This document shows positions 1,770-31,066 of a stretch of 32,195 nt of DNA, piece after piece. The notes beneath the pieces were generated by a model, which saw only the letters and a program-made list of their open reading frames with translations, made no database searches and was not told where the DNA came from. A program made the position numbers and the translations under genes. This stretch comes from a virus (lineage: Duplodnaviria > Heunggongvirae > Uroviricota > Caudoviricetes): IMG/VR virus record IMGVR_UViG_2563366972_000002, positions 1-32,195 of that record; one strand, written 5' to 3'. The stretch's first letter is position 1; each line of letters starts with the position of its first letter.

Positions 1770-1771
1770 TT

Positions 1772-7093: not shown

Positions 7094-7096
7094 GTA

Positions 7097-8054: not shown

Positions 8055-8059
8055 GATGT

Positions 8060-10866: not shown

Positions 10867-11039
10867 GAATACCTCGCCGTGATGAATACACGGCAAGGCT
10901 ACTGAGTCGCGCCCCGCGATTCGCTAAGGTGCTGTTGTGTCAGTGATAAGCCATCCGGGACTGATGGCGGAGGATGCGCATCGTCGGGAAACTGATGCCG
11001 ACATGTGACTCCTCTAATCACTATTCAGGACTCCTGACA

Positions 11040-11894: not shown

Positions 11895-11952
11895 CCGGCG
11901 TCAGTCAGTCCGGGAAAACCTTCACGATTAACCCTTAATTTCAGGAAAAACT

Positions 11953-13026
11953 ATGCGCCAGGAAACCCGCTTTAAATTTAATGCTTACCTGTCCCGTGTT
12001 GCCGAACTGAACGGCATCGACGCCGGTGATGTGTCGAAAAAATTCACCGTTGAACCGTCGGTCACCCAGACCCTGATGAACACCATGCAGGAGTCCTCTG
12101 ACTTTCTGACCCGCATCAACATTGTGCCGGTCAGCGAAATGAAAGGGGAAAAAATTGGTATTGGTGTCACCGGCTCCATCGCCAGCACCACCGACACCGC
12201 CGGTGGCACCGAGCGTCAGCCGAAGGACTTCTCGAAGCTGGCGTCAAACAAGTACGAATGCGACCAGATTAACTTCGATTTTTATATCCGCTACAAAACG
12301 CTGGACCTGTGGGCGCGTTATCAGGATTTCCAGCTCCGTATCCGTAACGCCATTATCAAACGCCAGTCCCTTGATTTCATCATGGCCGGTTTTAACGGCG
12401 TGAAGCGTGCCGAAACCTCTGACCGTAGCAGCAATCCGATGCTGCAGGATGTGGCGGTCGGCTGGCTGCAGAAATACCGCAATGAAGCCCCGGCGCGCGT
12501 GATGAGCAAGGTCACTGACGAGGAAGGGCACACCACCTCTGAGGTCATCCGCGTGGGTAAGGGCGGTGATTATGCCAGCCTTGATGCACTGGTGATGGAT
12601 GCGACCAACAACCTGATTGAGCCGTGGTATCAGGAAGACCCTGACCTTGTGGTGATTGTGGGGCGTCAGCTACTGGCGGACAAGTATTTCCCCATCGTCA
12701 ACAAGGAGCAGGACAACAGCGAAATGCTGGCCGCTGACGTCATCATCAGCCAGAAACGCATCGGTAACCTGCCGGCGGTACGCGTCCCGTACTTCCCGGC
12801 AGATGCGATGCTCATCACGAAGCTGGAAAACCTGTCCATCTACTACATGGATGACAGCCATCGCCGCGTGATTGTGGAAAACCCGAAACTCGACCGCGTG
12901 GAGAACTACGAGTCAATGAACATTGATTACGTGGTGGAAGACTACGCCGCCGGTTGTCTGGTGGAAAAAATTAAGGTCGGTGACTTCTCCACACCGGCTA
13001 AAGCGACCGCAGAGCCGGGAGCGTAA
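11953..13026 (+). CDS. N: Major capsid protein
   Basis: 357 aa, the P2 N size, positioned between O and M. Confidence 0.9.
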   Translation: MRQETRFKFNAYLSRVAELNGIDAGDVSKKFTVEPSVTQTLMNTMQESSDFLTRINIVPVSEMKGEKIGIGVTGSIASTTDTAGGTERQPKDFSKLASNKYECDQINFDFYIRYKTLDLWARYQDFQLRIRNAIIKRQSLDFIMAGFNGVKRAETSDRSSNPMLQDVAVGWLQKYRNEAPARVMSKVTDEEGHTTSEVIRVGKGGDYASLDALVMDATNNLIEPWYQEDPDLVVIVGRQLLADKYFPIVNKEQDNSEMLAADVIISQKRIGNLPAVRVPYFPADAMLITKLENLSIYYMDDSHRRVIVENPKLDRVENYESMNIDYVVEDYAAGCLVEKIKVGDFSTPAKATAEPGA

Positions 13027-13029
13027 CCG

Positions 13030-13773
13030 ATGACGAGTCCCGCACAGCGCCACATGATGCGGGTCTCGGCAGCGATGACCGCGCAGCGGGAAGCCGCCCC
13101 GCTGCGACATGCAACTGTCTATGAGCAGATGCTGGTCAAGCTGGCCGCAGACCAGCGCACACTGAAAGCGATTTATTCAAAAGAGCTGAAGGCCGCAAAA
13201 AAACGCGAACTGCTGCCGTTCTGGTTGCCGTGGGTGAACGGCGTGCTGGAGCAGGGCAAAGGCGCACAGGATGACATTCTGATGACGGTCATGCTGTGGC
13301 GTCTGGATACCGGCGATATTGCCGGTGCGCTGGAGATTGCCCGTTATGCCCTGAAGTACGGTCTGACCATGCCGGGTAAACACCGCCGCACCCCGCCGTA
13401 CATGTTCACCGAGGAGGTGGCGCTCGCGGCCATGCGCGCCCACGCTGCCGGTGAGTCTGTGGATCCCCGCCTGCTGACGGACACCCTTGAACTTACCGCC
13501 ACGGCTGACATGCCTGATGAAGTGCGTGCAAAGCTGCACAAAATCACCGGTCTGTTTCTGCGTGACGCTGGTGATGCCGCCGGTGCGCTGGCGCACCTGC
13601 AACGTGCGACACAGCTCGACTGTCAGGCAGGCGTCAAAAAAGAGATTGAACGACTGGAGCGGGAGCTGAAACCGAAGCCGGAGCCGCAGCCCAAAGCGGC
13701 CACCCGCGGCCCGCGTAAGACCCGGAGCGTGACACCGGCAAAACGTGGACGCCCGAAAAAGAAAGCCAGTTAA
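13030..13773 (+). CDS. M: Terminase small (endonuclease) subunit
   Basis: 247 aa, the P2 M size, with a basic K/R-rich C-terminus. Confidence 0.85.
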   Translation: MTSPAQRHMMRVSAAMTAQREAAPLRHATVYEQMLVKLAADQRTLKAIYSKELKAAKKRELLPFWLPWVNGVLEQGKGAQDDILMTVMLWRLDTGDIAGALEIARYALKYGLTMPGKHRRTPPYMFTEEVALAAMRAHAAGESVDPRLLTDTLELTATADMPDEVRAKLHKITGLFLRDAGDAAGALAHLQRATQLDCQAGVKKEIERLERELKPKPEPQPKAATRGPRKTRSVTPAKRGRPKKKAS

Positions 13774-13872
13774 CAACCGAATGCGCCCCGCGCCAGGGCG
13801 GCACGCCGGTCAGTGAGGGTGAATCACCTGACACTGCACCGGCGTCCACCGCCCGACTTTTCAGAGGTAGTC

Positions 13873-14382
13873 ATGATGACGCTGATTATTCCGCGAAAGG
13901 AGGCTCCCGTGTCCGGTGAGGGTACGGTGGTCATCCCGCAACCGGCAGGCGACGAGCCGGTGATTAAAAACACGTTCTTTTTTCCCGATATCGACCCGAA
14001 GCGCGTCCGGGAACGTATGCGCCTTGAGCAGACCGTCGCCCCCGCCCGTCTGCGTGAGGCCATCAAGTCAGGCATGGCGGAGACAAATGCGGAGCTGTAC
14101 GAGTACCGCGAACAGAAAATTGCCGCCGGTTTTACGCGTCTGGCGGACGTCCCGGCGGACGACATCGACGGTGAAAGCATCAAAGTTTTTTACTACGAGC
14201 GCGCCGTGTGTGCGATGGCGACCGCGTCGCTTTATGAGCGTTACCGCGGCGTGGATGCCAGTGCGAAAGGTGACAAGAAGGCTGACAGCATTGACAGCAC
14301 CATTGATGAACTGTGGCGGGATATGCGCTGGGCGGTGGCGCGTATCCAGGACAAGCCGCGCTGCATCGTGAGTCAAATCTGA
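13873..14382 (+). CDS. L: Head completion/stabilisation protein
   Basis: Start chosen at ATG 13873 (MMTLIIP..., GAGG RBS), giving 169 aa, the P2 L size. Confidence 0.8.
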   Translation: MMTLIIPRKEAPVSGEGTVVIPQPAGDEPVIKNTFFFPDIDPKRVRERMRLEQTVAPARLREAIKSGMAETNAELYEYREQKIAAGFTRLADVPADDIDGESIKVFYYERAVCAMATASLYERYRGVDASAKGDKKADSIDSTIDELWRDMRWAVARIQDKPRCIVSQI

Positions 14383-14585
14383 TGAAGACCTTTGCGCTAC
14401 AGGGCGACACGCTCGACGCCATTTGTGTCCGGTATTACGGGCGCACTGAGGGCGTGGTTGAGACCGTGCTCGCCGCAAATCCGGGACTGGCTGAACTGGG
14501 TGTGGTGCTGCCACACGGCACCGCCGTCGAACTGCCCGACGTTCAGACCGCGCCCGTGGCTGAAACTGTCAATCTGTGGGAGTAA
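14382..14585 (+). CDS. X: Tail protein X
   Basis: 67-aa ORF starting MKTFALQGDTLDAI, overlapping the L stop (ATGA); the ORF track entry 14313..14585 is the same frame with an upstream extension. Confidence 0.8.
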   Translation: MKTFALQGDTLDAICVRYYGRTEGVVETVLAANPGLAELGVVLPHGTAVELPDVQTAPVAETVNLWE

Positions 14586-14588
14586 CGC

Positions 14589-14870
14589 ATGACAGCAGAA
14601 GAAAAAAGCGTCCTGTCGCTTTTCATGATTGGGGTGCTGATTGTTGTCGGCAAGGTGCTTGCCGGTGGTGAACCCATCACCCCGCGTCTGTTTATCGGGC
14701 GCATGTTGCTCGGTGGTTTTGTCTCGATGGTTGCCGGTGTTGTTCTGGTGCAGTTTCCTGACATGTCACTGCCTGCGGTGTGCGGCATTGGCTCCATGCT
14801 GGGTATCGCCGGTTATCAGGTGATTGAGATTGCCATTCAGCGCCGCTTTAAGGGCAGGGGGAAACCGTAA
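14589..14870 (+). CDS. Y: Holin
   Basis: 93 aa with hydrophobic transmembrane segments, immediately upstream of the endolysin. Confidence 0.8.
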   Translation: MTAEEKSVLSLFMIGVLIVVGKVLAGGEPITPRLFIGRMLLGGFVSMVAGVVLVQFPDMSLPAVCGIGSMLGIAGYQVIEIAIQRRFKGRGKP

Positions 14871-15367
14871 TGCCGGTAATTAACACACATCAGAATATCG
14901 CCGCCTTTCTCGACATGCTGGCCGTGTCCGAAGGGACGGCGAATCATCCGCTGACGAAAAACCGGGGCTATGACGTGATAGTCACCGGACTGGACGGGAA
15001 GCCGGAAATTTTCACCGACTACAGTGACCACCCGTTCGCGCATGGCCGACCGGCGAAGGTGTTTAACCGTCGCGGTGAAAAGTCCACGGCATCCGGTCGC
15101 TATCAGCAGCTTTACCTGTTCTGGCCGCACTACCGCAAACAGCTTGCCCTGCCGGATTTCAGTCCGTTGTCACAGGACAGGCTCGCCATTCAGTTGATCC
15201 GCGAACGCGGTGCACTGGATGACATCCGGGCGGGACGCATTGAGCGCGCTATTTCACGCTGTCGCAATATCTGGGCGTCCCTGCCGGGAGCCGGTTACGG
15301 TCAGCGTGAGCATTCACTGGAAAAACTGGTCACCGTCTGGCGTACCGCTGGCGGCGTACCGGCTTAA
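14870..15367 (+). CDS. K: Endolysin (lysozyme)
   Basis: 165 aa, the P2 K size, within the lysis cassette. Confidence 0.85.
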   Translation: MPVINTHQNIAAFLDMLAVSEGTANHPLTKNRGYDVIVTGLDGKPEIFTDYSDHPFAHGRPAKVFNRRGEKSTASGRYQQLYLFWPHYRKQLALPDFSPLSQDRLAIQLIRERGALDDIRAGRIERAISRCRNIWASLPGAGYGQREHSLEKLVTVWRTAGGVPA

Positions 15368-15381
15368 ACGGAGTAAACACC

Positions 15382-15807
15382 ATGAAGAAATTATCCCTTT
15401 CACTGATGCTGAACGTGTCGCTGGCGCTGATGCTGGCACTGTCCCTGATTTACCCGCAGAGCGTGGCCGTCAGTTTTGTCGCTGCCTGGGCGATTCTGGC
15501 GACGGTTATCTGTGTGGTTGCCGGTGGTGTCGGCGTGTATGCCACTGAGTATGTGCTGGAACGCTACGGGCGGGAGCTGCCGCCGGAATCGCTGGCCGTG
15601 AAGATTGTCACGGCGCTGTTTTTGCAGCCGGTGCCGTGGCGCAGACGGGCGGCGGCTCTGGTGGTGATGGTGGTGACGTTTATCTCGCTGGTCGCTGCCG
15701 GGTGGATTTTTACTGCGCTGATTTACCTCGTGGCGTCGCTGTTCTTCCGGCTGATACGTACGGCCTGCCGTCAGCGTTTTGAGGGGCGGGAACTATGTCA
15801 AAGCTGA
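15382..15807 (+). CDS. lysA: Lysis accessory membrane protein LysA
   Basis: 141 aa, strongly hydrophobic multi-pass membrane protein at the P2 lysA position. Confidence 0.75.
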   Translation: MKKLSLSLMLNVSLALMLALSLIYPQSVAVSFVAAWAILATVICVVAGGVGVYATEYVLERYGRELPPESLAVKIVTALFLQPVPWRRRAAALVVMVVTFISLVAAGWIFTALIYLVASLFFRLIRTACRQRFEGRELCQS

Positions 15808-16220
15808 TGATTGTGCTGGTCGTGTTGTTATCACTGGCGGTGGCCGGTCTGTTTCTGGCGAAGCATGAAAACGCCAGCCTGCGCACCTCGCTGGACAGGG
15901 CGAACAACGTCGCCAACGGGCAGCAGACGACCATCACCATGCTGAAAAATCAGCTTCATGTTGCCCTCGCCAGAGCAGACAAAAACGAGCTGGCGCAGGT
16001 GGCACTGCGTCAGGAACTGGAGAACGCGGCGAAGCGTGAAGCACAGCGCGAGAAAACCATCACGAGGTTACTGAATGAAAACGAAGATTTTCGCCGCTGG
16101 TACGGCGCTGGCCTGCCTGATGCTGTGCGCCGGTTGCACCAGCGCCCGGCCTGCACCGACGCCAGTGATTGTCGCCAACGCCTGCCCGAAAGTGAGCCTT
16201 TGCCCGATGCCGGGCAGTGA
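15795..16220 (+). CDS. lysB: i-spanin (Rz-like) LysB
   Basis: 141 aa with an N-terminal transmembrane segment followed by a charged coiled-coil-like region. Confidence 0.75.
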   Translation: MSKLMIVLVVLLSLAVAGLFLAKHENASLRTSLDRANNVANGQQTTITMLKNQLHVALARADKNELAQVALRQELENAAKREAQREKTITRLLNENEDFRRWYGAGLPDAVRRLHQRPACTDASDCRQRLPESEPLPDAGQ

Positions 16221-16365
16221 CCCGGAGACGAACGGCGATTTAAGTGCCGATATCCGACAGCTTGAGAACGCGCTGGCGCGCTGTGCCAGCCAGGTAAAAA
16301 TGATTAAACACTGTCAGGACGAAAACGATGCTCAAACCCGACAGCCTGCGCAGGGCGCTGACTGA
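16075..16365 (+). CDS. lysC: o-spanin lipoprotein (Rz1-like) LysC, starting inside lysB in another frame
   Basis: 96 aa. Signal peptide with lipobox-like LCAGC and a Pro-rich mature part; begins within lysB in the +1 frame and extends into R. Confidence 0.7.
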   Translation: MKTKIFAAGTALACLMLCAGCTSARPAPTPVIVANACPKVSLCPMPGSDPETNGDLSADIRQLENALARCASQVKMIKHCQDENDAQTRQPAQGAD

Positions 16366-16795
16366 TGCCGTCACGGTGCTGAAAACAAGCCCCGAGATGC
16401 TGCGGATATTCGTGGATAACGGGAGTATTGCCTCCACACTGGCGACGTCGCTGTCATTCGAAAAGCGTTACACGCTCAATGTCATTGTGACCGACTTTAC
16501 CGGTGATTTTGACCTGCTCATCGTGCCGGTGCTGGCGTGGCTGCGGGAAAATCAGCCCGACATCATGACCACCGACGAAGGCCAGAAAAAGGGCTTCACG
16601 TTTTATGCGGACATCAACAATGACAGCAGCTTTGATATCAGTATCAGCCTGATGCTGACCGAGCGCACGCTGGTCAGTGAGGTTGACGGCGCGCTGCATG
16701 TGAAGAATATCCCGGAACCCACGCCGCCGGAGCCCGTCACCCGCCCGATGGAGCTTTATATCAATGGCGAACTGGTGAGCAAGTGGGATGAATGA
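16328..16795 (+). CDS. R: Tail completion protein R
   Basis: 155 aa at the P2 R position. Confidence 0.8.
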   Translation: MLKPDSLRRALTDAVTVLKTSPEMLRIFVDNGSIASTLATSLSFEKRYTLNVIVTDFTGDFDLLIVPVLAWLRENQPDIMTTDEGQKKGFTFYADINNDSSFDISISLMLTERTLVSEVDGALHVKNIPEPTPPEPVTRPMELYINGELVSKWDE

Positions 16796-17240
16796 GTTTA
16801 AGCGTTTTGAAGACCGGCTGACCGGACTTATTGAATCGCTGTCACCGTCAGGGCGTCGGCGACTGAGTGCCGAACTGGCGAAACGTCTGCGGCAGAGTCA
16901 GCAGCGTCGGGTGATGGCACAGAAAGCCCCGGACGGCACCCCCTACGTGCCACGCCAGCAGCAGAGCGCCAGAAAAAAGACCGGTCGCGTTAAGCGAAAA
17001 ATGTTTGCGAAACTTATCACCAGTCGTTTTTTGCATATCCGCGCCAGCCCGGAACAGGCATCAATGGAGTTTTACGGCGGGAAGTCACCGAAAATCGCCA
17101 GTGTGCATCAGTTCGGTCTGTCGGAAGAAAACCGGAAAGACGGTAAGAAAATTGATTATCCGGCGCGTCCCCTGCTCGGCTTTACCGGTGAGGATGTGCA
17201 GATGATTGAAGAGATTATCCTGGCTCACCTCGACCGTTAG
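16788..17240 (+). CDS. S: Tail completion protein S
   Basis: 150 aa at the P2 S position. Confidence 0.8.
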   Translation: MNEFKRFEDRLTGLIESLSPSGRRRLSAELAKRLRQSQQRRVMAQKAPDGTPYVPRQQQSARKKTGRVKRKMFAKLITSRFLHIRASPEQASMEFYGGKSPKIASVHQFGLSEENRKDGKKIDYPARPLLGFTGEDVQMIEEIILAHLDR

Positions 17241-17306
17241 TTGTGCCATTCCCGACACCTCATCGTCACATTGCCGCCGGTATGACCCGGCGGCATCCTT
17301 CCCGTT

Positions 17307-17942
17307 ATGAACACTCTCGCAAATATCCAGGAACTCGCGCGCGCACTGCGCAACATGATTCGCACCGGCCTTGTCGTCGAAACCAACCTTAAAGCCGGTC
17401 GCTGCCGTGTGCAGACCGGTGGCATGTGCACCGACTGGCTTCAGTGGCTGACCTGTCGTGCCGGTCGTTCGCGCACATGGTGGGCACCTTCCGTGGGGGA
17501 ACAGGTGCTGATTCTGGCCGTGGGCGGTGAACTCGACACGGCGTTCGTTCTGCCGGGGATTTATTCCGGCGATAACCCTCCGCCGTCTGCGTCGGCGGAT
17601 GCCCTGCATATCCGTTTCCCTGACGGGGCGGTGATTGAGTATGAACCTGAAACCAGTGCACTGACGGTAAGCGGAATTAAAACGGCCAGCGTGACGGCTT
17701 CTGATTCTGTTACTGCCACGGTGCCGGTGGTCACGGTGAAAGCATCAACCCGCGTTACCCTGGACACACCGGAGGTGGTCTGCACCAACAGGCTGATTAC
17801 CGGCACGCTGGAAGTGCAGAAGGGCGGGACGATGCGCGGCAACATTGAACATACCGGCGGTGAACTTTCATCAAACGGGAAGGTACTGCATACCCATAAA
17901 CACCCCGGCGACAGCGGCGGCACAACCGGGAGTCCTTTATGA
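17307..17942 (+). CDS. V: Baseplate spike/assembly protein V
   Basis: 211 aa at the P2 V position. Confidence 0.85.
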   Translation: MNTLANIQELARALRNMIRTGLVVETNLKAGRCRVQTGGMCTDWLQWLTCRAGRSRTWWAPSVGEQVLILAVGGELDTAFVLPGIYSGDNPPPSASADALHIRFPDGAVIEYEPETSALTVSGIKTASVTASDSVTATVPVVTVKASTRVTLDTPEVVCTNRLITGTLEVQKGGTMRGNIEHTGGELSSNGKVLHTHKHPGDSGGTTGSPL

Positions 17943-18286
17943 CAGCGCGTTATCTCGGAATGAATCGCAGTGATGGCCTGACTGCCACTGACCTTGAGCA
18001 TATCAGCCAGAGTATCGGCGATATCCTGCGTACGCCGGTCGGCTCGCGGGTGATGCGTCGTGATTACGGCTCGTTGCTGGCATCAATGATTGACCAGCCG
18101 CAGACCCCGGCGCTTGAGTTGCAGATTAAGGTTGCCTGTTACATGGCCGTGCTGAAATGGGAACCCCGCGTCACCCTGGCATCCGTCACCACGGCGCGCA
18201 GCTTTGACGGTCGAATGACAGTTACGTTAACCGGCCAGCATAACGACACCGGCCAGCCACTTTCGTTAACCATCCCTGTGAGTTGA
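17939..18286 (+). CDS. W: Baseplate wedge protein W (gp25-like)
   Basis: 115 aa, overlapping the V stop. Confidence 0.85.
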   Translation: MTARYLGMNRSDGLTATDLEHISQSIGDILRTPVGSRVMRRDYGSLLASMIDQPQTPALELQIKVACYMAVLKWEPRVTLASVTTARSFDGRMTVTLTGQHNDTGQPLSLTIPVS

Positions 18287-18290
18287 AACC

Positions 18291-19199
18291 ATGCCGATTA
18301 TCGACCTGAACCAGCTACCCGCACCGGATGTGGTTGAGGAGCTGGACTTTGAAACCATTCTTGCCGAACGCAAGGCGACACTGATTTCCCTTTACCCGGA
18401 AGACCAGCAGGAGGCGGTCGCCAGTACCCTGACGCTGGAATCCGAGCCTCTCGTCAAACTGCTGGAGGAAAATGCTTATCGCGAGCTTATCTGGCGTCAG
18501 CGTGTGAATGAGGCCGCACGGGCGGTAATGCTGGCCTGTGCCGCCGGTAATGACCTTGATGTGATTGGTGCCAATTACAACACCACGCGCCTGATTATCA
18601 CCCCGGCAGATGATTCGACCATTCCGCCGACACCGGCAGTGATGGAGTCTGACACTGATTATCGTCTGCGTATTCAGCAGGCGTTTGAGGGCTTAAGCGT
18701 CGCCGGGTCGGTGGGAGCCTATCAGTATCATGGTCGCAGTGCTGACGGGCGTGTCGCGGATATCTCTGTCACCAGTCCGTCTCCGGCCTGTGTCACCATC
18801 TCTGTGCTGTCCCGCGAAAATAACGGTGTCGCATCCGAAGACCTGCTGGCTGTGGTACGTAACGCCCTTAATGGCGAGGACGTCAGGCCGGTGGCCGACC
18901 GCGTGACCGTGCAGTCTGCCGCCATTGTTGAATACCAGATAAACGCCACGCTTTACCTTTACCCTGGTCCCGAAAGCGAACCCATCCGCGCTGCCGCCGT
19001 GAAAAAGCTGGAAGCGTACATCACAGCACAGCACCGGCTGGGGCGCGACATCCGTCTGTCTGCCATTTATGCCGCCTTGCATGTGGAAGGCGTGCAGCGT
19101 GTCGAACTGGCTGCACCGCTGGCCGATATCGTGCTTAACAGCACGCAGGCGTCTTTCTGTACCGAATACCGCGTCGTGACCGGAGGCTCGGATGAGTGA
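18291..19199 (+). CDS. J: Baseplate protein J
   Basis: 302 aa at the P2 J position. Confidence 0.85.
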   Translation: MPIIDLNQLPAPDVVEELDFETILAERKATLISLYPEDQQEAVASTLTLESEPLVKLLEENAYRELIWRQRVNEAARAVMLACAAGNDLDVIGANYNTTRLIITPADDSTIPPTPAVMESDTDYRLRIQQAFEGLSVAGSVGAYQYHGRSADGRVADISVTSPSPACVTISVLSRENNGVASEDLLAVVRNALNGEDVRPVADRVTVQSAAIVEYQINATLYLYPGPESEPIRAAAVKKLEAYITAQHRLGRDIRLSAIYAALHVEGVQRVELAAPLADIVLNSTQASFCTEYRVVTGGSDE

Positions 19200-19722
19200 T
19201 TCGCGACTGCTGCCGACCGGCTCATCACCGCTTGAAGTTGCCGCCGCAAAAGCCTGTGCGGAAATTGAAAAAACGCCGGTCAGGATTCGTGAACTGTGGA
19301 ACCCGGACACCTGCCCGGCAAATCTGCTGCCGTGGCTGGCGTGGGCGTTTTCGGTCGACAGATGGGATGAAAAGTGGCCGGAAGCGACAAAACGCGCCGT
19401 TATCCGCGATGCCTATTTCATCCACTGTCATAAAGGCACTATCGGCGCAATCCGGCGTGTGGTGGAGCCGCTCGGCTATCTCATCAACGTGACGGAGTGG
19501 TGGGAAAACAGTGACCCGCCAGGCACCTTCAGGCTTGATATTGGTGTACTGGAAAGCGGTATCACAGAGGCAATGTATCAGGAAATGGAACGGCTGATTG
19601 CCGATGCCAAACCTGCAAGCCGTCACCTTATTGGTCTGAACATTACCCGGGACATTCCCGGCTACCTGTTCGCCGGTGGTGTGGCTTACGACGGCGATGT
19701 AATTACGGTTTACCCCGGATAA
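19192..19722 (+). CDS. I: Baseplate protein I
   Basis: 176 aa, overlapping the J 3' end. Confidence 0.85.
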   Translation: MSDSRLLPTGSSPLEVAAAKACAEIEKTPVRIRELWNPDTCPANLLPWLAWAFSVDRWDEKWPEATKRAVIRDAYFIHCHKGTIGAIRRVVEPLGYLINVTEWWENSDPPGTFRLDIGVLESGITEAMYQEMERLIADAKPASRHLIGLNITRDIPGYLFAGGVAYDGDVITVYPG

Positions 19723-19732
19723 GTGAGGAATA

Positions 19733-22051
19733 ATGAGCACAAAATTCAGAACCGTTATCACCACTGCCGGTGCAGCAAAGCTGGCAGCGGCAACCGCGCC
19801 GGGAGGGCGGAAGGTCAACATTACCACGATGGCCGTCGGGGATGGCGGTGGTAAATTGCCTGTCCCGGATGCCGGACAGACCGGGCTTATCCACGAAGTC
19901 TGGCGACATACGCTGAACAAAATCAGCCAGGACAAACGAAACAGTAATTATATTATCGCAGAGCTGGTTATTCCGCCGGAGGTGGGCGGTTTCTGGATGC
20001 GTGAGCTTGGCCTGTACGATGATGCGGGAACGTTAATTGCCGTGGCGAACATGGCCGAAAGTTATAAGCCAGCTCTTGCCGAAGGCTCAGGGCGTTCGCA
20101 GACCTGTCGCATGGTCATCATCGTCAGCAGTGTGGCCTCGGTGGAGCTGACCATTGACACCACAACGGTGATGGCGACACAGGATTACGTTGATGACAAA
20201 ATTGCAGAGCACGAACAGTCACGACGTCACCCGGACGCCTCGCTGACCGCAAAAGGTTTTACTCAGTTAAGCAGTGCGACCAACAGCACGTCTGAAACAC
20301 TGGCCGCAACGCCGAAAGCGGTAAAGGCCGCCTATGACCTTGCTAACGGGAAATATACCGCACAGGACGCTACCACAGCGCGAAAAGGTCTTGTCCAGCT
20401 CAGTAGTGCCACCAACAGCACGTCTGAAACGCTCGCCGCAACACCAAAAGCGGTAAAGGCCGCGTATGACCTTGCTAACGGGAAATACACTGCACAGGAC
20501 GCCACCACAGCGCGAAAAGGTCTTGTCTAGCTCAGTAGCGTCACCAACAGCGATTCTGAAACGCTTGCGGCAACGCCAAAGGCGGTAAAGACAGCGTATG
20601 ACCTTGCTAACGGGAAATACACTGCACAGGATGCCACTACAGCGCGAAAAGGTCTTGTCCAGCTCAGTAGCGCCACCAACAGTGATTCTGAAACGCTGGC
20701 CGCAACATCAAAAGCGGTGAAGTCTGCCTATGACAATGCTGAAAAACGTCTTCAGAAAGATCAGAACGGTGCGGATATTCCGGGAAAGGATACCTTCACG
20801 AAAAATATCGGTGCCTGTCGTGCTTATAGCGGCGCTTTGAGCACTGAAGCCGGAAACTGGACAACCGCTCAGTTTATTGAATGGCTGGATTCCCGTGGTG
20901 CATTTAATCATCCGTACTGGATGTGCAAAGGCTCCTGGTCATATGCAAATAACAAAATCATTACGGATACCGGATGTGGTGATATCCACCTGGCTGGTTG
21001 TGTCGTCGAGGTCATGGGAATTAAATCTGCAATCACTATCCGAGTGACCACGCCGACAACATCAAGTGGTGGCGGTACAACCAGCGCGCAATTCACTTAC
21101 ATTAATCATGGGGACGGCTACTCCCCCGGCTGGCGTCGTGACTGGAATCGTCAGGGCGACGCAATGACCGGAACGATTAATCAGGACGGCGGAAGCCAGA
21201 ATGCCTATATGTCTACGGCCTTATGTTCAGGCACCAGAGGCGGCAAAAAATATCTCAGAAAGTTTCGTGGTGGAGAAGGAGACACTATCTGGCATGAAAC
21301 AGTACAGGGCGGGGTAGTTCGCTGGGCGACTGGTAATACTGATGCTCAGGAAGAATTATCACTCAGCTCCGCTTATGGTCTCCGTTCAAGAGGTGAAATT
21401 ACATCACTCAGTGCTAATGGTCTGCGCATTGCTTATGGCAATTATGGATTCTTTATCAGGAATGATGGCGGCAGCACATATTTAATGCTGACGGCCTCTG
21501 GCGATAAATTTGGGACATGGAACGGTTTAAGACCGCTGACTATCAATAACGCCAATGGCGGAGTGTCAATGGGGCATGGCCTGAGTGTTACAGGTGATAT
21601 TGTCTCAAGTACCAAAGTACGTGCCGGTAGCGGGAAAAAGTTCACGGTCAGCAGCAGCAATACATCCACGAAGGAAGCCGCATTCAATTTGTGGGGAAAC
21701 TCAAGTCGTCCTGTGGTGGCTGAATTAGGTGATGATGCAGGCTGGCATTTTTACAGTCAGAGAAATACAGATAACAGCATCACTTTTGCTGTTAACGGGC
21801 AGGTATCACCATCTAACTATGGCAACTTTGATTCACGCTATGTCCGGGATATCCGGCTTGGTGGTGCTGCCACATACAAACCTGCGAACAATGGCATGAC
21901 ATGGACACATCAGGCACCGTCCGGGTGTGTATATTCCGGGATTATTGTTCAGGATACCGGCTCAAACTCTGCCGATAACATTGGTGGCGTATATTACAGG
22001 CCAGTACAGAAATATATTAACGGGACATGGTATAACGTGGCGCAGGTATAA
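19733..22051 (+). pseudogene. H: Tail fibre protein H, one continuous frame interrupted by a single in-frame TAG at 20528..20530 (either a nonsense-disrupted gene or a sequencing/assembly artefact in a repeat)
   Basis: The ORF track entries 19733..20530 and 20717..22051 are in the same frame; translating 20531..20716 by hand gives no further stops. The TAG sits where the other three repeat copies have CAG. The 20717 start in the ORF track is an internal GTG. Confidence 0.65.
20264..20734 (+). repeat. In-frame tandem repeat inside H, about 3.6 copies of a 132-bp (44-aa) unit
   Basis: Copies begin at 20264, 20396, 20528 and 20660, each encoding QLSSATNS(T/D)SETLAATPKAVKAAYDLANGKYTAQDATTARKGLV with a few substitutions; the fourth copy diverges after about 20731. 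Confidence 0.85.
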
Positions 22052-22054
22052 TTT

Positions 22055-22582
22055 ATGCAGCATTTGATAAATATAATGGCAGGTAATCCAAAAACGGTTG
22101 AACAATATCAATTGACAAAAGACTTTGATGTTGTCTGGTTTTTTTCAGAAGATGGTAAGAACTGGTACGAAGAACAAAAGTATTTTGCTGATGACACGCT
22201 AAAAATAGCGTACGACAAAGATAATATCATCCGCTATGTGGAAAAGGATGTGACAGCTATCAGACCGGATGGATTAAGTGTTGTTGAAGTGGCGGATATT
22301 ACTGCTAACCGACGGGCGGACATTTCAGGGAACTGGATGTTTAAGGACGGTACAGTGATTAAACGCATTTATACGGCAGAGGAATTGCAGCAGCAGGCAG
22401 AAAATCGGAAAGCCAGACTTCTTGCAGATGCTGAATCCGTGATTTTGCCGCTGGAGCGCGCGGTCAGACTGAACATGGCAACAGATGAGGAGCGCAGCCG
22501 ACTGGAAGCATGGGAACGCTACAGCGTTCTGGTCAGTCGTGTGGATCCTGCAAATCCTGAATGGCCGGAAATGCCGCAATAA
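22055..22582 (+). CDS. G: Tail fibre assembly chaperone
   Basis: 175 aa immediately downstream of H. Confidence 0.8.
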
Positions 22583-22887
22583 GTTGTATGAACTCTGGTG
22601 TGAGCTTACATACCTATAGAACAGAGTAAAGCCTAATCTGACAGTCCGCTCTGTGCCAGAAGCGGACATATCTTCAGATATCCTTATGGTGAAAAAACAC
22701 AGCCATTAATTATTGTTTAATATTAATAATCAAAGTATGTTATAGTTTCATTTGCAAGGAAAATCTCATCAGAAAAATGCTTTATCACAGTGCCAAAAGT
22801 GGATAATCTATCACCCATTCATCTAGAGTTCGTTAGGTTTCTTTATCATTCGATTCAATCTTCTTATACAAGGAGTAGTTAGTCTCT

Positions 22888-24162
22888 ATGAGTGTCATAA
22901 AAGATTTTTTAGAACAATATAGCAAGCAGTATGATTACTATTCTGAGTTGGCAAAAATAGGCTCAAGCTTGCTCGAGCAGGAATTGGAAAAGAGAGGGAT
23001 TAAAGCCATAGTTTCATTCAGAGCTAAGCGACCAGACCGCTTAGAACAAAAACTTAATCAAAGAAATGAAAAGTCAGCATATGCAGATGTTGCTAATATA
23101 TATGAAGATATTGTCGACCTGGCCGGTGTTCGAGTAGCTTTATATTTTCCAAAAGATAGAGAAGTAGTTGATGAAACTATTAATTTTTTATTTAATGTCC
23201 GGAAAAAGAAAAACTTTCCAGAAGCATCTTATAAACCTAAATTTGAAAAAAGGTTTTCTGGTTACTGGGCATCTCATTATCGTGTCAATTTGAAAAACTC
23301 TAACCAAAATAATAAGCGTTACGAAAGTGCATTATTTGAGATTCAAGTAGCATCGGTTCTTATGCATGCCTGGTCCGAAGTCGAACATGACCTTGTTTAC
23401 AAACCTCTAGCAGGCGATTTATCTGAAGAGGAACTTGCAATTCTAGATGAGATTAATGGATTAGTGCTTACTGGCGAAATAGCTCTTGAAAGACTTCAAA
23501 AAGCCATAACAAAAAGAACTAAAGAAAAAGATAATATTTCAAATAGATATGAGTTAACGAGTTTTATAACCAACTCACTAAATAAGAATTATATAAGCAA
23601 ACTTAAATTAGGTGATACTAAAATTTTATTTAATTATCTCAAGGGTAATTCTAGCATAAGCGTCAGTGAACTTTCTGAATATTTGCGTAAAATTAATCAA
23701 AGTGAAAAAGAAACAATCACAGATCAATTGCTTCTTATGTTTATTAATGATTCATACAAGAGCGTTGGAGGTAATTTAAAACTTTCAAATTATTTCAAAC
23801 GTGCTCTTGGGGAACATAAGGATGTATCAGGGTTTGAGTCATTTGTTAAAACATGGATTTTACTAGAAAAAGCAGTCTCTTTAATTCATAATCAAAACAA
23901 TCGCCAGCACAAAAAATTCTTCACCGCAAAATTTGAGCCATTGGTTTCTGACGGAGTGCTGACGCGAGAAGAGTCATTTGAACTAAACTATTTTAAAAGA
24001 ATCAGAAATAACTTACTTCATGGTATAGAAACACCTAACGATGAAGAGCTAAACGAAATGTTCGTTAGATTGTTAGCATTAACTGAGAAGGTTATCTCAT
24101 CTATTAAAAATGATGATGATAAAGCTAAATTGCTCAAAGAATTAAAGACGTTGAGTGATTAA
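22888..24162 (+). CDS. RelA/SpoT-family nucleotidyltransferase (toxSAS-like) with Cys-free C-terminal domain; CapRel-like fused toxin-sensor candidate at the Z/fun locus
   Basis: 424 aa. N-terminal half carries the RelA/SpoT synthetase-fold motifs in order: SFRAKRPDRLEQKL, DIVDLAGVRVALYF, GYWASHYRV, EIQVASVLMHAWSEVEHDLVYK. C-terminal about 230 aa is K/N-rich, has no cysteine, and includes RIRNNLLHG. AAGGAG RBS. About 28-30 percent GC by eye, against about 50 percent in the flanking phage genes. Confidence 0.65.
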   Translation: MSVIKDFLEQYSKQYDYYSELAKIGSSLLEQELEKRGIKAIVSFRAKRPDRLEQKLNQRNEKSAYADVANIYEDIVDLAGVRVALYFPKDREVVDETINFLFNVRKKKNFPEASYKPKFEKRFSGYWASHYRVNLKNSNQNNKRYESALFEIQVASVLMHAWSEVEHDLVYKPLAGDLSEEELAILDEINGLVLTGEIALERLQKAITKRTKEKDNISNRYELTSFITNSLNKNYISKLKLGDTKILFNYLKGNSSISVSELSEYLRKINQSEKETITDQLLLMFINDSYKSVGGNLKLSNYFKRALGEHKDVSGFESFVKTWILLEKAVSLIHNQNNRQHKKFFTAKFEPLVSDGVLTREESFELNYFKRIRNNLLHGIETPNDEELNEMFVRLLALTEKVISSIKNDDDKAKLLKELKTLSD

Positions 24163-24330
24163 AATATGAGATAAAAATCATTGTCATAGACTAATTATTG
24201 TTTTGTATTCAGAGCCTGAATCTAAGCAGAATGATATGTCCGCTCCTCGCTCAAAGCAGACTGTCAGATTTGATAGCTTTTGGGCTAAGTAAATTGTCAG
24301 TCGGAAAATGAGTGAGTACAAATCAGGACT

Positions 24331-24356
24331 GGCGGGCGAATTGCCCGCCTTTTCTT
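24331..24356 (+). terminator. Rho-independent terminator downstream of the toxSAS-like gene
   Basis: GGCGGGC(24331..24337)-GAAT-GCCCGCC(24342..24348) followed by TTTTCTTT. Confidence 0.7.
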
Positions 24357-24453
24357 TATCTGTTGTTTCATCCACTGACCAGCCAGGTCAAATAGCGTCT
24401 CATGCTCTGCACAACAGAAAATAGTTGCACCCATTAACCACGGAGTTAAACGG

Positions 24454-25644
24454 ATGAGTGACTATCATCACGGCGTGCAGGTGCTGGAGATTAACGACGG
24501 CACCCGCGTCATTTCCACCGTATCCACGGCCATTGTCGGCATGGTCTGTACGGCCAGCGATGCGGATGCGGAAACCTTCCCCCTCAATAAACCGGTGCTG
24601 ATTACCAATGTGCAGAGCGCAATTGCAAAGGCCGGTAAAAAAGGCACGCTGGCGGCGTCGTTACAGGCCATCGCTGACCAGTCAAAACCGGTCACCGTTG
24701 TTGTGCGCGTGGAAGACGGCACCGGCGACGACGAGGAAACGAAACTCGCGCAGACCGTTTCCAATATTATCGGCACCACCGACGAAAACGGCCAGTACAC
24801 CGGACTGAAAGCCCTGCTGGCGGCAGAGTCGGTTACCGGCGTTAAACCGCGTATTCTCGGTGTGCCGGGGCTGGATACCAAAGAGGTGGCTGTTGCACTG
24901 GCATCAGTCTGTCAGAAGTTGCGCGCTTTCGGGTATATCAGTGCATGGGGCTGTAAAACCATTTCCGAGGTGAAAGCTTACCGCCAGAATTTCAGCCAGC
25001 GTGAGCTGATGGTCATCTGGCCGGATTTCCTCGCATGGGATACGGTCACCAGTACCACCGCCACCGCGTATGCCACCGCCCGTGCGCTGGGTCTGCGCGC
25101 TAAAATCGACCAGGAGCAGGGCTGGCATAAAACGTTGTCCAATGTCGGGGTGAACGGTGTTACCGGCATCAGCGCCTCTGTATTCTGGGATTTGCAGGAG
25201 TCCGGCACCGATGCTGACCTGCTTAATGAGTCTGGCGTCACAACGCTGATTCGCCGCGACGGTTTCCGCTTCTGGGGTAACCGTACCTGCTCTGATGACC
25301 CGCTGTTCCTCTTTGAAAACTACACCCGCACCGCGCAGGTGCTGGCCGACACGATGGCTGAGGCGCACATGTGGGCGGTGGACAAGCCCATCACCGCAAC
25401 GCTGATTCGCGACATCGTTGACGGCATCAATGCCAAATTCCGTGAGCTGAAAACAAACGGCTATATCGTGGATGCGACCTGCTGGTTCAGCGAAGAATCC
25501 AACGATGCGGAAACCCTCAAGGCCGGAAAACTGTATATCGACTACGACTATACACCGGTGCCTCCTCTTGAAAACCTGACCCTGCGCCAGCGTATTACCG
25601 ATAAATACCTGGCAAATCTGGTCACTTCGGTTAACAGCAATTAA
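24454..25644 (+). CDS. FI: Tail sheath protein
   Basis: 396 aa, the P2 FI size; GGAG RBS. Confidence 0.9.
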   Translation: MSDYHHGVQVLEINDGTRVISTVSTAIVGMVCTASDADAETFPLNKPVLITNVQSAIAKAGKKGTLAASLQAIADQSKPVTVVVRVEDGTGDDEETKLAQTVSNIIGTTDENGQYTGLKALLAAESVTGVKPRILGVPGLDTKEVAVALASVCQKLRAFGYISAWGCKTISEVKAYRQNFSQRELMVIWPDFLAWDTVTSTTATAYATARALGLRAKIDQEQGWHKTLSNVGVNGVTGISASVFWDLQESGTDADLLNESGVTTLIRRDGFRFWGNRTCSDDPLFLFENYTRTAQVLADTMAEAHMWAVDKPITATLIRDIVDGINAKFRELKTNGYIVDATCWFSEESNDAETLKAGKLYIDYDYTPVPPLENLTLRQRITDKYLANLVTSVNSN

Positions 25645-25656
25645 GGAGCCTGACCG

Positions 25657-26175
25657 ATGGCAATGCCGCGCAAACTCAAGTTAATGAACGTCTTTCTGAA
25701 CGGCTACAGCTATCAGGGCGTCGCGAAGTCCGTCACGCTACCAAAACTGACCCGTAAGCTCGAAAACTATCGCGGTGCGGGAATGAACGGCAGCGCACCG
25801 GTAGACCTCGGCCTTGATGACGATGCGCTGTCAATGGAGTGGTCGCTCGGTGGCTTCCCGGATTCGGTTATCTGGGAGCTTTACGCCGCAACCGGTGTGG
25901 ATGCCGTGCCGATTCGTTTTGCCGGTTCTTACCAGCGCGACGATACCGGCGAAACGGTGGCCGTCGAAGTGGTCATGCGTGGACGTCAGAAAGAAATCGA
26001 CACCGGCGAGGGGAAACAGGGAGAAGATACCGAGTCGAAAATCTCTGTGGTCTGCACCTATTTCCGGCTGACGATGGACGGTAAGGAACTGGTCGAAATC
26101 GACACCATCAACATGATTGAGAAGGTGAACGGCGTCGACCGGCTGGAGCAACACCGCCGCAATATCGGCCTGTGA
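25657..26175 (+). CDS. FII: Tail tube protein
   Basis: 172 aa, the P2 FII size; AAGGAG RBS. Confidence 0.9.
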   Translation: MAMPRKLKLMNVFLNGYSYQGVAKSVTLPKLTRKLENYRGAGMNGSAPVDLGLDDDALSMEWSLGGFPDSVIWELYAATGVDAVPIRFAGSYQRDDTGETVAVEVVMRGRQKEIDTGEGKQGEDTESKISVVCTYFRLTMDGKELVEIDTINMIEKVNGVDRLEQHRRNIGL

Positions 26176-26231
26176 TTTTCATCCGGTCAGCCAGGCTGAC
26201 CGGTTAACCCCGATTCAGAAGTGAGAAAACC

Positions 26232-26507
26232 ATGAACAAAGAAAATGTGATTACCCTGGACAATCCGGTCAAGCGTGGAGAGCAGGTCATCGAACAGGTC
26301 ACGCTGATGAAACCCAGTGCCGGGACGCTGCGCGGTGTCAGTCTGGCTGCGGTCGCGAACTCCGAAGTCGATGCACTGATTAAGGTGCTGCCGCGCATGA
26401 CGGCACCGATGCTGACCGAGCAGGAAGTCGCCGCACTGGAACTGCCTGACCTTGTGGCGCTGGCCGGTAAGGTGGTCGGTTTTTTGTCGCCGAACTCGGT
26501 GCAGTGA
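26232..26507 (+). CDS. E: Tail assembly chaperone E
   Basis: 91 aa ending just after a T TTT TTG slippery heptamer. Confidence 0.8.
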   Translation: MNKENVITLDNPVKRGEQVIEQVTLMKPSAGTLRGVSLAAVANSEVDALIKVLPRMTAPMLTEQEVAALELPDLVALAGKVVGFLSPNSVQ

Positions 26508-26659
26508 CGTTTCCGAAAAATCTGTCGGTCGATGACCTGATGGCGGATGTGGCAGTGATATTTCACTGGCCGCCATCAGAACTGTATCCCATGAGCCTGA
26601 CCGAACTCATCACATGGCGCGAAAAGGCGCTCCGGCGAAGCGGAAACACGAATGAGTAA
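26232..26659 (+). CDS. E': E+E' tail assembly chaperone made by programmed -1 frameshift at 26480..26486
   Basis: Slippery heptamer T TTT TTG in X XXY YYZ register relative to the E frame. The -1 frame stays open from 26486 (VAELGAVTFPKNL...RRSGNTNE) to the TAA at 26657..26659, overlapping the T start. Confidence 0.7.
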
Positions 26660-29099
26660 CAATGTAAAATTACAGGTATTGCTCAGGGCTGTTGACCAGG
26701 CATCCCGCCCGTTTAAATCCATCCGTACAGCGAGTAAGTCGCTGTCGGGGGATATCCGGGAAACACAAAAATCACTGCGCGAGCTGAACGGTCACGCATC
26801 CCGTATTGAGGGATTCCGCAAGACCAGCGCACAGCTTGCCGTGACTGGTCATGCACTTGAAAAGGCTCGGCAGGAAGCCGAAGCCCTTGCCACACAGTTT
26901 AAAAACACTGAACGTCCGACCCGTGCTCAGGCGAAAGTGCTGGAATCCGCAAAGCGTGCGGCGGAGGACTTACAGGCGAAATATAACCGCCTGACGGATT
27001 CCGTTAAACGCCAGCAGCGGGAACTGGCCGCTGTGGGAATTAATACCCGCAATCTTGCACATGATGAGCAGGGACTGAAAAACCGTATCAGTGAAACCAC
27101 CGCACAACTTAACCGTCAGCGCGACGCGCTGGCGCGTGTCAGTGCGCAACAGGCAAAACTTAACGCAGTAAAACAGCGTTATCAGGCCGGAAAGGAACTG
27201 GCCGGAAATATGGCCTCAGTGGGCGCAGCCGGTGTGGGGATTGCGGCGGCGGGAACGATGGCCGGAGTTAAGCTGCTGATGCCCGGTTATGAGTTTGCGC
27301 AGAAAAACTCAGAATTGCAGGCCGTGCTCGGTGTGGCAAAAGACTCCGCCGAAATGACCGCGCTCCGCAAGCAGGCGCGCCAGCTCGGTGACAATACTGC
27401 CGCCTCGGCAGATGATGCAGCCGGTGCGCAGATTATTATTGCGAAAGCCGGTGGGGATGTTGATGCCATTCAGGCGGCAACGCCGGTCACGCTGAACATG
27501 GCGCTGGCAAACCGTCGCACGATGGAGGAAAACGCCGCCCTGCTGATGGGGATGAAATCTGCCTTTCAGCTTTCAAACGATAAGGTTGCTCATATCGGGG
27601 ATGTTCTCTCCATGACGATGAACAAAACCGCCGCCGATTTTGACGGCATGAGCGATGCGCTGACCTATGCCGCACCTGTGGCAAAAAATGCCGGTGTCAG
27701 CATTGAAGAAACCGCCGCAATGGTCGGGGCGCTGCATGATGCAAAAATCACAGGCTCAATGGCGGGGACGGGAAGCCGTGCCGTGTTAAGCCGCCTGCAG
27801 GCACCGACGGGAAAAGCATGGGATGCACTCAAAGAGCTTGGAGTGAAAACCTCAGACAGCAAGGGAAACACCCGGCCAATATTTACCATTCTGAAAGAAA
27901 TGCAGGCCAGTTTTGAGAAAAACCGGCTCGGTACTGCCCAGCAGGCTGAATACATGAAAACTATTTTCGGGGAGGAGGCCAGCTCAGCCGCCGCCGTGCT
28001 GATGACTGCCGCCTCAACCGGAAAGCTGGACAAACTGACCGCTGCGTTTAAAGCCTCAGACGGGAAGACCGCCGAGCTGGTAAATATCATGCAGGACAAC
28101 CTAGGCGGTGACTTTAAGGAGTTTCAGTCCGCTTATGAGGCGGTGGGGACTGACCTGTTTGACCAGCAGGAAGGCGCACTGCGTAAGCTCACGCAGACGG
28201 CCACAAAGTATGTGTTAAAACTCGACGGCTGGATACAGAAAAACAAATCACTGGCGTCAACCATCGGCATCATTGTCGGTGGTGCACTGGCGCTGACTGG
28301 TGTCATCGGTGCCATTGGCCTCATAGCCTGGCCGGTTATCACCGGCATCAATGCCATCATCGCGGCAGCAGGCGCAATGGGGGCAATCTTCACGACGGTT
28401 GGCAGTGCTGTTATGACCGCCATCGGGGCGATTAGCTGGCCGGTTGTGGCCGTGGTGGCCGCCATTGTCGCCGGGGCGTTGCTTATCCGTAAATACTGGG
28501 AGCCTGTCAGCGCATTCTTTGGCGGTGTGGTGGAAGGGCTGAAAGCGGCCTTTGCGCCGGTGGGGGAACTGTTCACGCCACTGAAACCGGTGTTTGACTG
28601 GCTGGGCGAAAAGTTACAGGCCGCGTGGCAGTGGTTTACAAACCTGATTGCTCCGGTTAAAGCCACCCAGGACACCCTGAACCGTTGCCGTGACACGGGC
28701 GTCATGTTCGGGCAGGCACTGGCTGACGCGCTGATGCTGCCGCTTAATGCGTTCAACAAACTGCGCAGCGGTATTGACTGGGTACTGGAAAAACTCGGTG
28801 TTATCAACAAAGAGTCAGACACACTTGACCAGACCGCCGCCAGAACTCATGCCGCCACGTATGGCACCGGTGGTTATATTCCGGCGACCAGCTCTTATGC
28901 AGGCTATCAGGCTTATCAGCCGGTCACGGCACCGGCTGGCCGCTCTTATGTGGACCAGAGTAAAAACGAATATCACATCAGCCTGACGGGTGGTACTGCG
29001 CCGGGGACACAGCTCGACCGCCAGTTACAGGATGCGCTCGAAAAATACGAGCGGGATAAACGTGCGCGCGCCCGTGCCAGCATGATGCATGACGGTTAA
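26652..29099 (+). CDS. T: Tail tape measure protein
   Basis: 815 aa, the P2 T size; coiled-coil N-terminal region and Gly/Ala-rich hydrophobic segment. Confidence 0.9.
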   Translation: MSNNVKLQVLLRAVDQASRPFKSIRTASKSLSGDIRETQKSLRELNGHASRIEGFRKTSAQLAVTGHALEKARQEAEALATQFKNTERPTRAQAKVLESAKRAAEDLQAKYNRLTDSVKRQQRELAAVGINTRNLAHDEQGLKNRISETTAQLNRQRDALARVSAQQAKLNAVKQRYQAGKELAGNMASVGAAGVGIAAAGTMAGVKLLMPGYEFAQKNSELQAVLGVAKDSAEMTALRKQARQLGDNTAASADDAAGAQIIIAKAGGDVDAIQAATPVTLNMALANRRTMEENAALLMGMKSAFQLSNDKVAHIGDVLSMTMNKTAADFDGMSDALTYAAPVAKNAGVSIEETAAMVGALHDAKITGSMAGTGSRAVLSRLQAPTGKAWDALKELGVKTSDSKGNTRPIFTILKEMQASFEKNRLGTAQQAEYMKTIFGEEASSAAAVLMTAASTGKLDKLTAAFKASDGKTAELVNIMQDNLGGDFKEFQSAYEAVGTDLFDQQEGALRKLTQTATKYVLKLDGWIQKNKSLASTIGIIVGGALALTGVIGAIGLIAWPVITGINAIIAAAGAMGAIFTTVGSAVMTAIGAISWPVVAVVAAIVAGALLIRKYWEPVSAFFGGVVEGLKAAFAPVGELFTPLKPVFDWLGEKLQAAWQWFTNLIAPVKATQDTLNRCRDTGVMFGQALADALMLPLNAFNKLRSGIDWVLEKLGVINKESDTLDQTAARTHAATYGTGGYIPATSSYAGYQAYQPVTAPAGRSYVDQSKNEYHISLTGGTAPGTQLDRQLQDALEKYERDKRARARASMMHDG

Positions 29100-29113
29100 G
29101 GAGGTGACGAAAA

Positions 29114-30756: not shown

Positions 30757-30837
30757 TGTTTTTGTTTTATCTGTTTGTTTTATAAGGATAAATTAACTAA
30801 AATGGCACCATCAACAAAACCGGAAGAGGTGCTCGCG

Positions 30838-31056: not shown

Positions 31057-31066
31057 TCACAAAAAT

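Follow-up and report, generated by a model that had tools for sequence, protein, structure and literature searches.

The window analysed here, a stretch of 32,195 nucleotides, is identical to sequence of scaffold KB733034.1 of Escherichia coli KTE48 (GCA_000352305.1) and consists largely of a P2-like prophage adjoining a host gene (Table 1). The late genes of this prophage follow in the order Q P O N M L X Y K lysABC R S V W J I H G FI FII E/E' T U D, after which comes ogr. When the 38 annotated proteins of the related prophage ETEC1721 were used as tblastn queries, the 36 other conserved P2 proteins and FieF aligned essentially end to end with no stops or gaps, the gpA alignment ending 11 residues before the C-terminus of the ETEC1721 query. 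The one exception is the tail-fibre gene H, for which the 764-aa ETEC1721 protein aligned across 19733-22048 with exactly one stop. Two cargo ORFs are also present in the prophage, one a gene with a RelA_SpoT domain and the other an M78-peptidase gene.

Table 1. Features of the KTE48 prophage and of its tail-fibre gene H (positions in the window)
Feature	Position	Strand	Remarks
P2-like prophage	1..31197	.	from int to ogr, adjoining fieF; right end inferred from where Logan contigs stop
int	4-981	-	integrase, then C, cox, B, A
gene I	19192..19722	+	baseplate wedge protein, attachment partner of the fibre; intact; 100% identical over 176 aa to the ETEC1721 homologue
gene H	19733..22051	+	tail-fibre gene, P2-like (Peduovirus-type) prophage; 772 codons plus stop, one interruption
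truncated H product	19733..20530	+	265 aa, ELG03066.1; N-terminal adaptor, two whole repeats and the opening residues of a third
Phage_fiber_2 units	20246..20773	+	four tandem 132-bp (44-aa) units; amber codon in unit 3
amber codon	20528..20530	+	TAG, codon 266 of H; derived T at 20528, ancestral CAG (Gln)
orphaned distal H	20531..22051	+	remaining repeats, shaft, Gp34_trimer-like domain and receptor-binding tip; annotated from GTG 20717 as 444-aa ELG03067.1
gene G	22055..22582	+	tail-fibre assembly chaperone (Caudo_TAP), 3' of H; intact
ogr	30838-31053		last prophage gene
fieF	31293-32192		host gene beside the prophage; full length

Around the stop, the window has GGT CTT GTC TAG CTC AGT AGC at 20519-20539, with the TAG falling at 186173-186175 of the scaffold record and the T of position 20528 at 186173. 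The ORF that begins with the ATG at 19733 terminates at this TAG after 265 amino acids. Past it the same frame stays open through to the TAA at 22049-22051, giving 772 sense positions and a terminal stop, which bears out the description in the first-pass annotation of a single in-frame amber in an otherwise open H frame of about 773 codons. The gene is 98.1% identical in DNA over 2,319 bp to its best intact 772-aa relative, annotated as 'tail fiber protein'. Because both halves of H are homologous to intact 772-aa tail-fibre proteins, the interrupted frame is not a chance ORF. The gene contains 25 CAG codons, and a stop would result from about 3.8% of the single-base changes that are possible in it.

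The domain architecture was read from an intact relative more than 98% identical to H. On it, Pfam places PF12571 at residues 1-151 (E 1.3e-58), four copies of PF03406 from residue 170 (E 2.3e-78) and PF21446, Gp34_trimer-like, at 541-604; PF12571 is also recorded on the 265-aa KTE48 product. PF12571 and two PF03406 repeats thus lie ahead of the TAG, with PF21446 and the C-terminus beyond it. According to a P2 cryo-EM preprint, the fibre is a gpH homotrimer whose N-terminal adaptor binds the C-terminus of gpI and is followed by two repeat domains, and the P2 literature has adsorption mediated by gpH, with gpG required for gpH assembly. The KTE48 gene has the PF12571 adaptor, the Phage_fiber_2 repeats and the order I - H - G within a complete late-gene set that mark a P2-type gpH, and it departs from that type in its frame, which is interrupted by one internal TAG at codon 266. 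Judged by its sequence, the H locus of KTE48 is a pseudogene or amber allele, and it would not count as a functional gpH member unless suppressed.

The stop lies within a tandem repeat. Tandem Repeats Finder reports a single array at 20279-20734, with period 132, 3.5 copies and 89% matches. In the phase used by the first-pass annotation the units begin at 20264, 20396, 20528 and 20660 and their first codons are CAG, CAG, TAG and CAG, so that the third 132-bp copy does have TAG where copies 1, 2 and 4 have CAG, as had been reported. In this phase unit 3 is identical to unit 2 at 118 of 132 positions and to unit 1 at 109 of 132; its 78/132 identity to unit 4 understates their similarity, as unit 4 overruns the array there. 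The bases flanking T20528 match copy 2 over 24+10 nt and copy 4 over 21+12 nt. In the motif G(F/L)(T/V)QLSS, which recurs in every repeat of H and of its relatives, codon 266 takes the place of the invariant Gln. The further claim that the stop sits exactly at a repeat-unit boundary depends on the phase chosen: Tandem Repeats Finder has the array begin at 20279, and Pfam sets the start of its first Phage_fiber_2 repeat at residue 170, 8 residues ahead of the Gln of the first repeat (residue 178). The phase of a tandem repeat is arbitrary, so emphasis on the boundary has no significance, and a special status of the TAG position within the repeat was rejected as an artefact of phase. Repeat number varies among H genes, P2 having two repeat domains and strain cq9 six.

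The TAG allele is rare to the point of being a singleton. The 265-aa product is found on one NCBI contig only, that of KTE48. Its annotation there is hypothetical protein A1S5_00338 (ELG03066.1), and the 444-aa ORF downstream of it is A1S5_00339 (ELG03067.1). A 63-bp stretch around the TAG has no exact match among 5,426 complete E. coli genomes; 182 of these genomes carry the stretch, the best matches one base off, and none of the 182 has the TAG. One of these best matches, that of strain cq9, differs from KTE48 over the 63 bp only at 20528, where it has C and KTE48 has T. A 24-mer bearing the TAG was likewise without a match in contigs drawn from one genome per species, in the IMG/VR viral contigs and in the JGI metagenome contigs. 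The Gln at 266 is present in all 14 intact 772-aa relatives of the same 90% cluster, which together occur on more than 180 contigs. The 772-aa KTE48 protein repaired to Q266 is absent from the protein collection, an absence that is expected since short-read contigs break in the repeat. Literature searches yielded no mention of KTE48 and nothing relevant on premature fibre-gene stops in P2-like prophages. Going by these sequence comparisons, the TAG allele is most likely private to E. coli KTE48 or to its sequenced culture.

The rest of the gene indicates how old the stop may be. Compared with seven close intact H genes, from each of which it differs at 44-64 positions, KTE48 H has six private substitutions, namely the TAG and five synonymous changes; the stop is thus its only private non-synonymous change among the eight close H genes. 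The five synonymous changes cluster at 21940-22015, and they are shared, with no mismatches there, by contigs of a sister prophage described below (the C-type contigs) and by SRR29952140. Relative to the closest complete-genome relative, 32 of 44 differences in H are synonymous, as are 18 of the 21 that lie downstream of the stop. There is no sign of accumulated decay in H, and the stop is therefore very recent. The event would have been a recent G:C-to-A:T transition that converted CAG to TAG at codon 266. A Dcm hotspot was considered as its origin and rejected, the ancestral context being GTCCAGCTC and not CCWGG. The mutation could have arisen in laboratory culture instead of in the wild.

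We consider it quite probable that the locus records a recent, strain-private nonsense mutation that knocked out H in an otherwise intact prophage. The first-pass annotation had named a nonsense-inactivated prophage fibre among its options, and that option has gained ground: the gene is of the P2 gpH type, the stop is unique to the strain and the other conserved P2 genes tested are intact. The second option was that the true base is C and that the T is a consensus error, of sequencing or assembly, in a repeat that assembles poorly. Such an error would suit a singleton allele in a draft assembly of 2012-13, and the region is a difficult one, since many 'partial' tail-fibre proteins of the 90% cluster end in the repeat at contig edges and Logan contigs break there too. 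But the homologous position is C in copies 1, 2 and 4, with T in none of the three, and as no other repeat copy has T, mixing, collapse or misplacement of repeat reads cannot create T20528. The window, moreover, has no Ns or gaps in its 32,195 nt, and H has no other private non-synonymous change that would suggest a poor consensus.

An algorithmically different assembly also bears on the base. Logan provides k=31 de Bruijn assemblies of SRA runs, in which the allele is read from where contigs end and not from the base itself. Two versions of the window, one with T and one with C at 20528, were each put through a simulation of the k=31 unitig graph. With T, the upstream unitig ends at 20404 and the downstream unitig starts at 20641, the only repeated 31-mers nearby coming from identity between copies 2 and 4. 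With C, copy 3 shares identity tracts of 35 and 34 nt with copies 2 and 4, respectively, and the ends shift to 20401 and 20643.

Both kinds of ends occur among the Logan contigs. SRR639955_89 (20,549 bp) covers 5382-20404, has 0 mismatches to the window over those 15,023 bases and holds an H fragment of 224 aa, and SRR639955_41 (10,557 bp) covers 20641-31197, again with 0 mismatches. The two contigs, each present in 4 samples, therefore both end as the T allele predicts, with 0 mismatches over 25.6 kb. SRR639955 is presumed to be the KTE48 run; if so, this assembly and the published one rest on the same reads and the same DNA preparation. In two other samples, contigs SRR30592889_2858 and SRR30592933_31769 end at 20401 with an H fragment of 223 aa, and SRR30592889_91916 and SRR30592933_67339 start at 20643, which is C-type on both sides. 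These C-type contigs differ from the window by 1-2 SNPs in about 15 kb (2 in 15,020 bases, at 8876 and 17985) and by 0 in 4,409 and 3,821 bases. The C-type samples look like large or mixed assemblies, where another element could shift contig ends. A contig bearing the T was also sought in Logan through a 31-aa antisense ORF whose end lies at the newly formed CTAG, and none was on record.

That both flanks shift exactly as a single C/T change predicts is hard to explain otherwise. On this modelling, the simplest reading is that a second assembler, working on the presumed KTE48 runs (SRR639955), also sees T, and a sister prophage about 99.99% identical to that of KTE48, in the unrelated samples SRR30592889 and SRR30592933, most likely still has CAG. 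The case for an error, already short of a donor copy with T, is further weakened by ends at 20404 and 20641 and not at 20401 and 20643 in contigs from 4 samples, the base being deduced from those ends; we regard an artefact as distinctly unlikely. Contig ends of k=31 Logan assemblies could in this way be used, without reads, to infer a SNP allele inside a repeat that no contig spans.

With the stop taken as a genuine mutation, its consequences can be predicted. In a non-suppressing host, translation would end after 265 residues, leaving the adaptor for gpI and about two repeats, and the truncated gpH would be without the remaining shaft and the C-terminal receptor-binding region. Re-initiation past the stop was considered and rejected, as the first in-frame start is the GTG at 20717, 186 nt downstream, with no Shine-Dalgarno, and the resulting fragment would be without the baseplate adaptor. 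Transcriptional polarity, brought about by 1.5 kb of H message left untranslated, may also lower expression of the downstream gene G. In classical P2 genetics, the V-W-J-I-H-G transcription unit was defined by means of amber polarity, and reduced expression of G would be expected here on the same grounds. The prophage would still be capable of stable lysogeny and of making heads and tails, and its cargo would still be expressed. The particles released would have no functional fibres and would fail to adsorb, leaving the prophage defective in horizontal spread. This defective phenotype is predicted from the domain architecture and from classical P2 genetics; a single SNP probably abolishes infectivity.

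The repeat raises the question of whether the loss would be permanent. Every one of the 132 possible one-unit (132-bp) deletions that remove T20528 restores an intact H of 728 codons, and gene conversion over a short patch, templated by copy 2 or copy 4, would restore CAG. The T also creates CTAG, and T:G mismatches in a CTAG context are substrates of very-short-patch repair, which favours C. If the mutation is reversible by such routes, revertant infectious phage could arise well above the frequency of simple back-mutation. That the amber serves as an easily reversible 'off' state of prophage infectivity, and not as a dead end, nonetheless seems a long shot to us. H genes found in nature function with anything from 2 to 6 repeats.

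A further alternative is that the amber is read through, either by a suppressor tRNA of KTE48 (for example of the glnV/supE type) or by basal misreading by tRNA-Gln, and that the prophage stays infectious. The first-pass annotation was right that a glutamine-inserting suppressor would restore the ancestral residue: with Q266 invariant in all relatives, it would regenerate the ancestral protein exactly, and tRNA-Gln is a documented near-cognate misreader of UAG in E. coli. But ARAGORN finds no tRNA gene in the window, by which a phage-borne suppressor tRNA was rejected, and KTE48 appears to be a natural and not a laboratory strain. A singleton allele with a CAG sister also fits a fresh mutation better than a maintained suppressed state. 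Basal UAG readthrough of about 0.02% would fall far below the need of a virion, taken to be 18 gpH chains in six trimeric fibres. The base after the UAG is C, whereas purines favour suppression and readthrough; CUN codons after UAG may, according to what the lacI data of Miller and Albertini are said to show, be an exception to the purine rule. Published work puts basal UAG readthrough in E. coli MG1655 about 500-fold below the 12% UGA value, or roughly 0.02%, reports that tRNA-Gln misreads UAG as a near-cognate in E. coli, and identifies a purine after UAG as a favourable context for suppression and readthrough. A search of the literature for the prevalence of natural amber suppressors found nothing relevant. 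We give suppression very little chance.

Programmed recoding, in which a regulated leaky UAG would yield a short and a long fibre protein, has nothing to recommend it beyond the in-frame arrangement itself and next to no chance of being right: none of the 182 complete genomes with the stretch and none of the 14 intact relatives has the stop, the nearest sister prophage apparently has CAG, the +4 base is C, and a stimulatory RNA structure 3' of the UAG was rejected because the 103 nt from it (20528-20630) fold no better than shuffled sequences (z = 0.04). On sequence grounds, non-conservation has already effectively refuted it.

Our preferred reading, a recent knockout of H, has close parallels. 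Laboratory amber (conditional-lethal) mutants in P2 gene H were reportedly described by Sunshine et al. 1971, Lindahl 1974 and Lengyel et al. 1974. They share with KTE48 the gene family and a UAG within H, and the same phenotype is expected of both, namely fibre-defective tails, rescue on suppressor hosts and polarity on G, which for KTE48 is a prediction. Unlike those mutations, the one in KTE48 is spontaneous and lies in a resident prophage of what appears to be a natural isolate. The gene also differs, being a four-repeat, 772-aa variant with a different C-terminal half, to which P2 H aligns over about 37% of the gene.

The locus further resembles prophages that decay by point mutation, in which a single mutation disables a virion gene and leaves the genes for cargo and immunity untouched. 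Compared with typical cases, KTE48 stands at the very earliest stage, with one SNP, all 36 other conserved genes tested intact and an apparently intact sister in other samples. The rpoS amber alleles of K-12 lineages are CAG-to-TAG changes under supE/glnV suppression, and KTE48 shares with them both the CAG-to-TAG change and the regeneration of the wild-type protein that a Gln suppressor would bring; it differs in having a pyrimidine at +4 and in that the window encodes no suppressor. Programmed viral readthrough, as in the Q-beta A1 protein and retroviral gag-pol, involves conserved stops, some with stimulatory contexts or structures. The KTE48 gene has in common with these an in-frame stop inside a longer virion-protein frame, but its stop is a singleton with no downstream structure.

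The event is thus a new instance of a well-known and ordinary kind, and its significance is small and mainly practical. It is only mildly unusual, in that the first step of inactivation has been caught together with an apparently intact twin and that its position in a repeat offers easy reversion. As such it illustrates cleanly how prophage domestication begins, and the apparently intact sister copy allows a comparison. Scoring of completeness by gene content would probably call this prophage intact, as the 36 other conserved genes tested are present and full length. In annotation, A1S5_00338 and A1S5_00339 are better treated as the two halves of one tail-fibre pseudogene than as two 'hypothetical proteins'.

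Between G and FI, the gene for the sheath, lies a cargo gene that is a candidate for a defence or toxin function of the toxSAS type. Residues 42-181 of its product form a RelA_SpoT or small-alarmone-synthetase-like domain (Pfam E 1.4e-13) that is also matched by PDB 2be3 (E 1e-6), while PADLOC returns a weak match of the protein to PDC-S33. The C-terminal ~240 residues match no family. A tblastn search of 50,697 phage records with this protein returned a single, distant match in a Vibrio phage, and the gene is therefore without a close homologue among sequenced phages. Of the 5,426 complete E. coli genomes searched, 3 records representing 2 strains contain it. The exact protein is carried by 54 contigs, and relatives of at least 90 % identity are found in Serratia, Dickeya and Mangrovibacter, among others named.

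The same gene is present at 99.4 % DNA identity in E. coli YY76-1 (positions 5245-6519 of locus L011), on the margin of the degraded remains of a prophage rather than in a P2-like prophage. This remnant contains pinE, tfaE and IS26 and adjoins the paoABCD genes. Its location there implies that the gene moves between unrelated prophage backgrounds.

Cargo is also found between A and Q, in the form of a two-gene module. The product of its larger gene, 331 aa long, has an IrrE/Peptidase_M78 domain and weakly matches the RmrA, CapP and PD-Lambda-2_B models. The neighbouring gene encodes a 213-aa protein that matches no family. In related prophages this place is taken by cdtABC, an AAA ATPase or other genes.

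Cargo genes of the prophage and differences of its sister prophage
Feature	Window position	Strand	Change	Location
Two-gene cargo module	6098-7093 and 7097-7738	+		between A and Q (P2 old/tin hotspot)
Sister-prophage SNP	8876		T>G	portal gene
Sister-prophage SNP	17985		C>T	W
Cargo gene, 424 aa	22888-24162	+		between G and sheath gene FI (P2 Z/fun hotspot)

A sister prophage, recovered as contigs SRR30592889_2858 (L022) and SRR30592933_31769 (L023) from unrelated, 2024-numbered SRA runs, differs from that of KTE48 by two SNPs over 15 kb and has the same cargo genes. The positions at which its contigs end indicate that its H retains an intact CAG codon.

The extent of the KTE48 prophage can be read from the Logan contigs of SRR639955, the run presumed to be the strain's own. 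These stop on the right at window position 31197, between ogr and fieF, and on the left about 145 nt past the integrase stop codon (some 145 nt before window position 1). Both stops fit a prophage with the same att core, 31 nt or longer, on either side, and they place a prophage of ~31.3 kb immediately upstream of fieF.

The 3′ end of H carries five synonymous substitutions within 76 bp (window 21940-22015, plus strand), a cluster that probably marks a short tract of recombination. KTE48 alone has the five among eight close H genes, but they recur in the Logan contigs spanning this interval, namely the sister contigs of SRR30592889 and SRR30592933 and SRR29952140. The G protein encoded beside this end of H is just 76 % identical to that of the related prophage ETEC1721.

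Many database proteins of the H tail-fibre cluster annotated as partial stop within the 44-aa repeats (window 20246-20773) at contig edges, showing that short-read assemblies routinely break there. At its end (...NGNTLHRMPPQREKVLSS) the 310-aa Shigella sonnei 53G protein EFZ53078.1 is out of frame, pointing to either a frameshift or a misassembly within its repeat.

The T of the H amber codon creates the palindrome CTAG (window 20527-20530), a tetranucleotide that E. coli strongly avoids and in whose context very-short-patch repair acts towards CCAG. A heteroduplex with a neighbouring repeat would thus be biased to restoration of CAG. Being palindromic, the site also places a TAG on the minus strand, where it ends a spurious 50-aa antisense ORF (20527..20679).
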